Position numbers and translations under genes: made by a program
The notes under the pieces: generated by a model
What the model was told of the DNA's origin: nothing
What the model saw: the letters and a program-made list of their open reading frames with translations, nothing else
Database searches by the model: none
Shown here: positions 12,132-12,677 of the stretch, piece after piece
How positions within the stretch are numbered: position 1 is the stretch's first letter
Layout: each line of letters begins with the position of its first letter
Origin: a virus
Length of the DNA: 17,979 nt
UHGV virus genome: UHGV-0211073
Direction: 5' to 3' (one strand)

Positions 12132-12385
12132 TCTGCCAGCCAACGCAATTTCTCGTTGGCGAAAATATCAGGTATTTACTGAACGAACGGTCTACCAGTC
12201 TATTCAGTTACCAGTTGCACATGGCTGTTTCATGTGAGAACGGAGGTTTTTTCGGACATCACTATTGGTTACAGCAATTTCACGAGCAATACGCGCGCGC
12301 AGGACAACAAGCCTGAACATAGTTACACACCTCGATCGTGAGGGATGTAGACAATGGCTTCTGGCCAAAGCACCCGAAAAAAACC

Positions 12386-12620
12386 GTGTACATAAGGGTG
12401 TACATAATCAAAAACCGCATTAGAAATAAACCAGCTTCAATGCGGCATTGAAGCCAATACTCTACAAACAGATCCAGAATATCGAATAAGCTATCAGTAA
12501 AAATCACCAAGCAGCAAAAAACCACAAAGCCCGCGAAATGTCGGGCTTTTTTGTTATCATGAGCTATCATAACAACGCAACAAAGCGCACAATATGCGTG
12601 TACATAGAGGTGTACATAAT
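12386..12620. repeat. Two 23-bp direct repeats GTGTACATA(AG/GA)GGTGTACATAAT flanking a terminator; further TGTACA(T/C) motifs to 12650; candidate integrase-binding or att-junction region
   Basis: Copies at 12386-12408 and 12598-12620 with 2 mismatches; 'ATGTACAT' and 'ATGTACAC' at 12628-12650. Lies immediately upstream of the integrase start. Confidence 0.55.
12526..12552. terminator. Bidirectional rho-independent terminator (AAAGCCCG-loop-CGGGCTTT, then T-tract; A-tract upstream)
   Basis: 8-bp perfect stem, 8-nt loop, TTTTTT at 12547-12552, and AAAAAA at 12516-12521 on the other side. Confidence 0.6.
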
Positions 12621-12677
12621 GACTTTCATGTACATTGCTTTATGTACACCCCCATATTCGATATTCAGGTATTCGCA

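Follow-up and report, generated by a model that had tools for sequence, protein, structure and literature searches.

The region at positions 12386-12669 of the window, which is the whole 17,979-nt stretch of DNA analysed here, is very probably the attP-type joint of a single integrative, satellite-like element of 17,979 bp. The window comprises exactly one such unit, with a start that is arbitrary on a circle or on head-to-tail identical copies. The first-pass annotation had seen here a junction between two related P4-type islands in tandem. What it observed at the junction is largely correct and partly confirmed; its tandem-island model is not supported for the window, and the supposed "element A" (1-12476) and "element B" (12477-17979) are complementary portions of one element. 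The tandem idea was reasonable because tandem arrays do occur among relatives, but none is evidenced in the window. The misreading corrected here is a simple one, as a circular unit-length contig resembles two islands when it is read linearly.

The gene at the end of the window is completed at its beginning:
17789..17979, completed at 1-4, plus strand: gene spanning the window end, 64 aa, identical to WP_001065741.1; contigs L088 and L089 cross the boundary from 17979 to 1.
Joined in this way, 17789-17979 and 1-4 give an intact ORF whose stop codon overlaps the ATG at position 1, so the window is circularly permuted. In annotated E. coli chromosomes, the four small ORFs at the window ends follow one another within one operon. 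In many E. coli strains, the window aligns to the chromosome at 100% in two pieces within approximately 17,987 bp. The element is normally single-copy in E. coli and lies between yicC and dinD, as it does in strain PA45B, where the distance from the attL core to the attR core is 17,979 bp, equal to the window length. The window is an exact substring, base for base, of the circle predicted from the PA45B prophage, and a terminal overlap is absent from it.

The reading of two different but related P4-type islands, integrated successively at one att site, had drawn on a resemblance of the ORFs at 1-264 and 261-482 to those at 17578-17796 and from 17789 onward. This resemblance did not hold: the best blastp E value was 0.03 in a four-sequence database, the DNA of these ORFs gave no match, and the small ORF pairs are non-homologous when aligned, which on the annotation's own terms speaks against the model. 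Positions 1-12476 and 12477-17979 gave no blastn or tblastx match to each other at E<=1e-3. Heterologous tandem joints, as the reading supposes, do exist among relatives (L063, L044, L048/L064, and L031). The reading is nevertheless very improbable for the window, which contains a single int, no gene twice, and no second replication module. Its halves have neither DNA nor translated similarity, they join into one gene and together form one single-copy island, and its P and P' arms (see below) are of the same flavour.

The joint was also found in other assemblies. Two independent metagenome contigs contain the exact joint and cross the boundary from 17979 to 1. The perC-to-int joint is shared by pZ1323CEC0013_1-4, a circular 12,152-bp record of a related element, and it occurs in strain NRZ14408 on a separate linear 19.2-kb contig with both ends within the injection gene. 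The complete long-read chromosome of E. coli HB37 carries two identical tandem copies with the perC-to-int joint between them and a joint core of 21 nt. At 100% identity, the joint occurred in 0 of 5,426 complete E. coli genomes, while it had no match in the phage collection and no exact match among the viral contigs. Literature on an island at yicC/dinD consisted of passing mentions only.

These records bear on two further readings. As short-read assemblers can circularise repeats, the joint could be an assembly artefact, i.e., a false join of the island ends. We regard this as extremely improbable, because the same joint is present in the HB37 long-read chromosome, the circular plasmid-like record, the separate NRZ14408 contig, and the two metagenome contigs, and it is the precise product expected from site-specific recombination. 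Alternatively, the window could have been cut from a chromosome with two head-to-tail identical copies, which would arise when a circle integrates into attL or through Int-mediated exchange between sister chromosomes. Exactly such a structure exists in HB37, a circle and a tandem would yield the same joint sequence, and the NRZ14408 contig fits a collapsed repeat as well as a circle. Against this origin, the window is exactly unit-length and runs end into start without terminal overlap, which would be a remarkable coincidence for a piece cut from an array, a related element has a circular record, and the identical joint is missing from all of the complete E. coli genomes. An origin from identical tandem copies is rather unlikely, though it retains a real chance, and the exact unit length of 17,979 favours a circular contig as the source.

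The att core within the joint was defined by a core scan and a four-way alignment of the window joint, attL and attR of PA45B, and the empty K-12 site (attB):
12469..12489, plus strand: att core CAGATCCAGAATATCGAATAA, equal to the last seven codons (QIQNIE*) of yicC, with the crossover inside.
The consensus core, CAGAT[T/C]CAGAA[C/T]ATCGAATAA, is 21 bp long and identical to K-12 attB at 19 of 21 positions. In the alignment, attL and attR are recombinant, and with polymorphisms on either side, at core positions 6 and 12, the exchange falls within CAGAA (positions 7-11). Inverted core-type half-sites could not be clearly recognised. Integration rebuilds yicC with a synonymous 3' end and leaves the YicC protein unchanged at attL. 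On sequence grounds, the target is the 3' end of the protein gene yicC, not a tRNA. The earlier statement that no tRNA 3' end is recognisable stands, since tRNA and tmRNA genes are absent from the window, and the core it had left open is now placed at the 3' end of yicC. This gene was already published as a target of tyrosine-recombinase islands (PMC5704250; 10.1101/2022.07.18.500453). The latter, a Williams-lab preprint, mentions yicC-integrated PICIs and describes identity blocks that drift within yicC among similar integrases (10.1101/2022.07.18.500453).

Chromosomal copies with 100% identity have an attR core of 19 nt, not 21, and attR is short by 2 nt in many strains. This 19-nt attR core, CAGATyCAAyATyGArTAA, was seen in four chromosomes with different family members, namely L004 (20514), L002 (39236), L086 (30651), and L087 (34396), and its two missing nucleotides fall inside the CAGAA crossover segment. 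The full 21 nt are kept in attL, attB, and all circle or tandem joints, and a 21-nt attR is present in other strains, including NRZ14408 and ExPEC XM. Excision from copies with the 19-nt attR would require a crossover in the first eight core bases and would leave a 19-nt attB. An empty 19-nt attB was found in 0 of 5,426 genomes, and the idea that the short attR arose by conservative recombination from such an attB was dropped for this reason. As 21-nt attR sites exist, the loss of two nucleotides is secondary; it may have recurred or been inherited, and may fix the element at its site.

The core is flanked by short repeats. The direct repeats reported earlier are real, as CGTGTACATAAGGGTGTACATAAT (12385-12408) and CGTGTACATAGAGGTGTACATAAT (12597-12620) are identical at 22 of 24 positions, and each of these 24-nt repeats is a doublet of a 12-nt unit starting with GTGTACATA. 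Additional 12-nt units lie at 12628-12639 and, inverted, at 12638-12649. Five exact copies of the 9-mer GTGTACATA occur, all within 12386-12649 (264 nt), and none is present elsewhere in the 17,979 bases on either strand. The units are:
12386..12397, plus strand: P-arm repeat P1, GTGTACATAAGG, candidate arm-type site.
12398..12409, plus strand: P-arm repeat P2, GTGTACATAATC.
12598..12609, plus strand: P'-arm repeat P'1, GTGTACATAGAG, at position -78 in 34 elements.
12610..12621, plus strand: P'-arm repeat P'2, GTGTACATAATG, at position -66.
12628..12639, plus strand: P'-arm repeat P'3, ATGTACATTGCT, at position -48; weaker, with an orientation that varies among relatives.
12638..12649, minus strand: P'-arm repeat P'4, GTGTACATAAAG (minus strand), inverted, at position -34; the best-conserved copy.
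Two copies thus stand in the P arm and four in the P' arm, to either side of the core, whose sequence they do not resemble.

The repeats are followed by the integrase gene:
12678..13946, plus strand: tyrosine integrase of 422 aa with an N-terminal arm-binding domain.
The ATG at 12678 given by the first-pass annotation is borne out, as RefSeq and all relatives use the same start, and so is its placement of an att-type joint beside a P4-type, arm-binding integrase. The protein matches Arm-DNA-bind_3 (9e-20), Phage_int_M (7e-17), and Phage_integrase (7e-17), and its catalytic residues are readable as R (VRKMEL), HxxR (HDFRR), H (CLNH), and Y (GIYNR). All integrase relatives start with M-[PAG]-K-L-T-D. 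No integrase in the phage collection exceeds 33% identity to it. Among 5,426 complete E. coli genomes, 554 (approximately 10%) encode a related integrase.

For comparison, 80 loci encoding integrase relatives were fetched, and repeat positions were counted from the int ATG. Repeats at -78, -66, -48, and -34 were shared by 34 elements, whose hosts are E. coli and members of more than 20 other genera. The GT(G)TAC centre of these repeats is constant and their 3' flank exists in four flavours (ATAArG, ACCTrr, CCAAAG, and CCAAAT), with the copies inside one element sharing a flavour. The P-arm doublet lies at an equal distance left of the core, with its own flavour each, in L086, L087, L044, L064, and L063. 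In the three elements where both arms come from one element (the window, L086, and L087), the P-arm flavour equals that of the own P' arm.

The N-terminal domain of the integrase is near-invariant apart from residues 29-41 (LYICYPKNYTVPFW in the window), which sort perfectly with the flavour of the repeats. This segment shows by far the largest gap between same-flavour and different-flavour identity, 0.33 against a median of 0.047 over 100 sliding 12-residue windows, and residue 40 captures all of the flavour-class entropy (1.73 bits). Common descent of the flavour groups might explain part of the co-variation, but the signal is sharply concentrated in 12 residues, which speaks against this. 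Residues 3-90 show homology (E = 2e-7 to 4e-7) to arm-binding domains of solved structure, those of the HAI7 CP4-like (3JU0) and HPI (3JTZ/3RMP) integrases, which share approximately 30% identity with the window domain. Segment 29-41 aligns with the first strand-turn-strand (GLYLxV ... W) of the HPI and HAI7 domains, and from the fold class we infer that it would contact DNA.

The fixed positions of the repeats and their flavour co-variation give strong comparative support to the earlier suggestion that the TGTACA repeats are putative integrase arm-type sites. The GTGTACATAA repeats could instead be operators for another regulator of the element (the AlpA-like protein, for example, or the 216-aa protein encoded after int), as they lie directly upstream of int, where a repressor could act. 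This is improbable, given that copies are found to either side of the core, 200 nt from each other, like those of attP sites, that the far pair lies 18 kb from int once the element is integrated, and that the flavour co-varies with a 12-residue segment of the arm-binding domain of Int. Returning to arm-type sites, we tentatively consider it possible that the four flavours and the matching versions of integrase residues 29-41 form orthogonal arm-recognition pairs, with which members could share one attB (the yicC stop region) and sit in tandem, as in L063, each being excised by its own integrase only.

Heterologous yicC joints were observed from -286 to -33 in L063 (Pantoea stewartii) and from -284 to -33 in L044 (Serratia aquatilis), as well as in L048/L064 (Erwinia endophytica) and L031 (Rahnella). 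Their order is that of the P-arm repeats of the upstream element, a partly degraded core, and then the terminator, P' arm, and int of the second element. In L063, the P-arm flavour differs from that of the downstream P' arm. A sister clade with an integrase identity of 58-63%, comprising L038 (Klebsiella michiganensis) and L067 (Kosakonia oryziphila), was compared over the 250 nt upstream of int. These two elements lie at the 3' end of a der/engA-like gene ending in ..KRKRLIKHIKKSK* and have a different core, while they share the terminator, the conserved block TTATCATGGGCTATCATAAAGACGCAACAAAGCGCATGATT, and the GTGTAC repeats. Judged by these sequences, the target is changed and the arm architecture is kept in the sister clade. 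One further relative, L007 (CACSKA010000004.1), is labelled Chryseobacterium sp. 18061. Its yicC 3' end is of enterobacterial type, its integrase shares about 89% identity with that of the window, and the assembly is probably mislabelled or contaminated.

Other parts of the joint lie between the P arm and int:
12430..12458, unstranded: hairpin with a 13-bp stem, between the P arm and the core; mismatches in L001, L005, and L002, and absent in L086 and L087.
12526..12555, unstranded: intrinsic terminator, with the hairpin at 12526-12549 (AAAGCCCGCGAAATGTCGGGCTTT) and a T-run; an A-run lies upstream, so the minus strand scores too.
12551..12592, plus strand: conserved block TTGTTATCATGAGCTATCATAACAACGCAACAAAGCGCAC, kept across genera.
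12655..12669, minus strand: inverted core-like site TATTCGATATTCAGG, complementary to 12474-12488 at 14 of 15 positions and 9 nt before the int ATG.
The hairpin that the first-pass annotation read as a bidirectional terminator is real and scores terminator-like on both strands. In the integrated state, it lies 36 nt past the rebuilt yicC stop codon and 129 nt ahead of int, while the native yicC hairpin and T-run (-12.2 kcal/mol) are displaced by approximately 18 kb to the attR side. Conservation was followed by per-sequence folding, in which 31 of 33 relatives from other genera had a hairpin of -7 kcal/mol or lower immediately followed by a T-run, around position -131 relative to the int ATG. 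Stem sequences differ among relatives and include GCCCGC/GCGGGC, GCTCGCC/GGCGGGC, GCCACG/CGTGGC, and CCCTG/CAGGG, among others. RNAalifold gave no consensus for 29 aligned terminator regions because the hairpins are out of register in the MAFFT alignment. Folded alone, the terminator region of the window reached a z-score of only -1.26, so that support for the terminator comes from position and conservation, not from energy. We infer that it replaces the terminator of yicC itself and also insulates int.

The hairpin at 12430-12458 is probably not essential, as the other elements examined either lack it or carry it in degraded form. The block at 12551-12592 is a candidate site for the RDF (recombination directionality factor) or an accessory protein, or a candidate int promoter. 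Since it is kept in the sister clade with a different core, it serves the element and not the target. A sigma-70 promoter scan over 11400-13000 returned none, and the IHF (integration host factor) consensus WATCAANNNNTTR had no match inside the joint. Relatives have a similar sequence at the same place as the inverted core-like site at 12655-12669, which, by analogy, may be a candidate core-type Int site for autoregulation of int. Two ORFs across the att site, one of 96 aa on the minus strand (12280-12570) and one on the plus strand (12265-12423), are taken as spurious because PA45B RefSeq has no gene there.

The site could work as follows. The integrase would be heterobivalent, with catalytic and core-binding domains that act at the core and an N-terminal domain that binds the GTGTACATAA repeats. 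Of these, the two in the P arm are approximately 60-85 nt to the left of the core and the four in the P' arm 108-160 nt to its right. Such binding would bridge arms and core into an intasome, as in lambda, P4, and KplE1. Excision is likely directed by the AlpA-like protein:
15065..15283, plus strand: AlpA-family helix-turn-helix protein, candidate excision factor; Phage_AlpA 6e-6, with a weak excisionase-family match.
Int probably represses its own gene, as the P' arm and the inverted core-like site directly precede the int start; compare KplE1 IntS (PMC2951348). As the joint has no sigma-70 promoter or IHF consensus, this regulatory step is proposed by analogy only. The terminator would block transcription into int from yicC in the integrated state or from the perC side in the circular state, and it would shield yicC from antisense transcripts.

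The genes of the window include int, the 216-aa protein after int, the AlpA-type HTH protein, AntA, a DUF4222 protein, small ORFs, and PerC. A primase-helicase with Zn_Ribbon_Prim, Toprim_3, and DUF5906 is present, which scored 20 bits against a cut-off of 108.7 with the NCBIfam model of the P4-family primase C-terminus. Rfam assigned the C4 antisense RNA at 17250-17337 (plus strand, 79.9 bits) and isrK at 17110-17187 (plus strand, 67.8 bits). Both lie inside a 355-aa ORF at 16729-17796, an "ash family protein", at its Pfam Phage_ASH match (residues 124-232). The "ash" protein-family match probably reflects a conserved P4-type immunity RNA locus and not a protein. No capsid, tail, or terminase genes were found in the element, and neither terS nor rpp was recognised. 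There was no Pfam or PHROGs match to psu, delta, or sid among the ORFs searched (at least 70 aa). The PICI layout is present, with int, alpA, and a primase/replication module in one direction within 10-20 kb at a fixed chromosomal site. The element fits the loose PICI/P4-like satellite class, not P4 proper.

Two genes on the plus strand, at 5345-6700 and 6685-8802, encode a P22 gp20-like protein (Inj_translocase 2.5e-73; phrog_917) and a gp16-like protein (phrog_770, DNA transfer protein), and the relatives L001 and L002 also carry gp14-like (DUF2824) and gp7-like genes. This gene content suggests that the satellite may supply its own ejection proteins to the particle of a P22-like helper; no description of a satellite with its own P22-like ejection proteins was found in the literature searched. 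The stretch from the ejection genes to perC (8822-11452) differs among otherwise near-identical elements (compared with L001 1941-4659 and L086 28085-30446). In the window it encodes an ImmA/IrrE protease (CapP-like, PADLOC 4.9e-25) and small membrane proteins, while its counterparts are an Abi family protein in NRZ14408 and SSB and pRiA4b ORF-3-like genes in NT1F10. The stretch looks like a variable cargo or defence hotspot.

Among known systems, the attP and int of P4, with Vis as the excision factor, have reportedly been described by Pierson and Kahn in 1987, by Cali in 2004, and by Piazzolla in 2006. The element resembles P4 in its three-domain integrase, in an int gene that adjoins the att site and is transcribed into the element, and in repeated Int sites around a core of approximately 20 bp identical to the 3' end of the target gene. 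Further likenesses are the small AlpA/Vis-type HTH protein, the RNA-based immunity (C4/isrK), and the zinc-ribbon and Toprim primase-helicase. It differs in its target, which is yicC and not the tRNA-Leu of P4, in its lack of psu, delta, and sid, and in its P22-like ejection genes. Phage 21 and e14 integrate in the 3' end of the protein gene icd and supply a replacement 3' end of approximately 165 bp. In both cases the 3' end supplied by the element keeps the target protein intact, whereas here only 21 bp are replaced and a replacement terminator is supplied.

In KplE1 (CPS-53), intS is negatively autoregulated by IntS and the RDF, and the same was predicted for many integrases arranged in this way (PMC2951348). 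The likeness to the KplE1 IntS/TorI system lies in an attL region that overlaps the region upstream of int (PMC2951348), while KplE1 targets a tRNA gene and, in the present site, a terminator separates the core from the P' arm and autoregulation is presumed. The Vibrio MGIs likewise use a tyrosine recombinase that inserts into the yicC 3' end (table in PMC5704250; 10.1101/2022.07.18.500453); by description they are set apart, being mobilised by conjugative elements and carrying other cargo.

The att site is hereby fixed for a common island family. The site is an ordinary, well-understood attP of a heterobivalent integrase and opens no new kind of biology; the 3' end and the terminator of the target gene are both tidily replaced. 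The 12 integrase residues that track the arm-site sequence make a clean comparative case, which could guide the engineering of arm specificity. If the proposed orthogonal pairs are true, the family would be a natural collection of integrases whose specificity is switched by approximately 12 residues alone.
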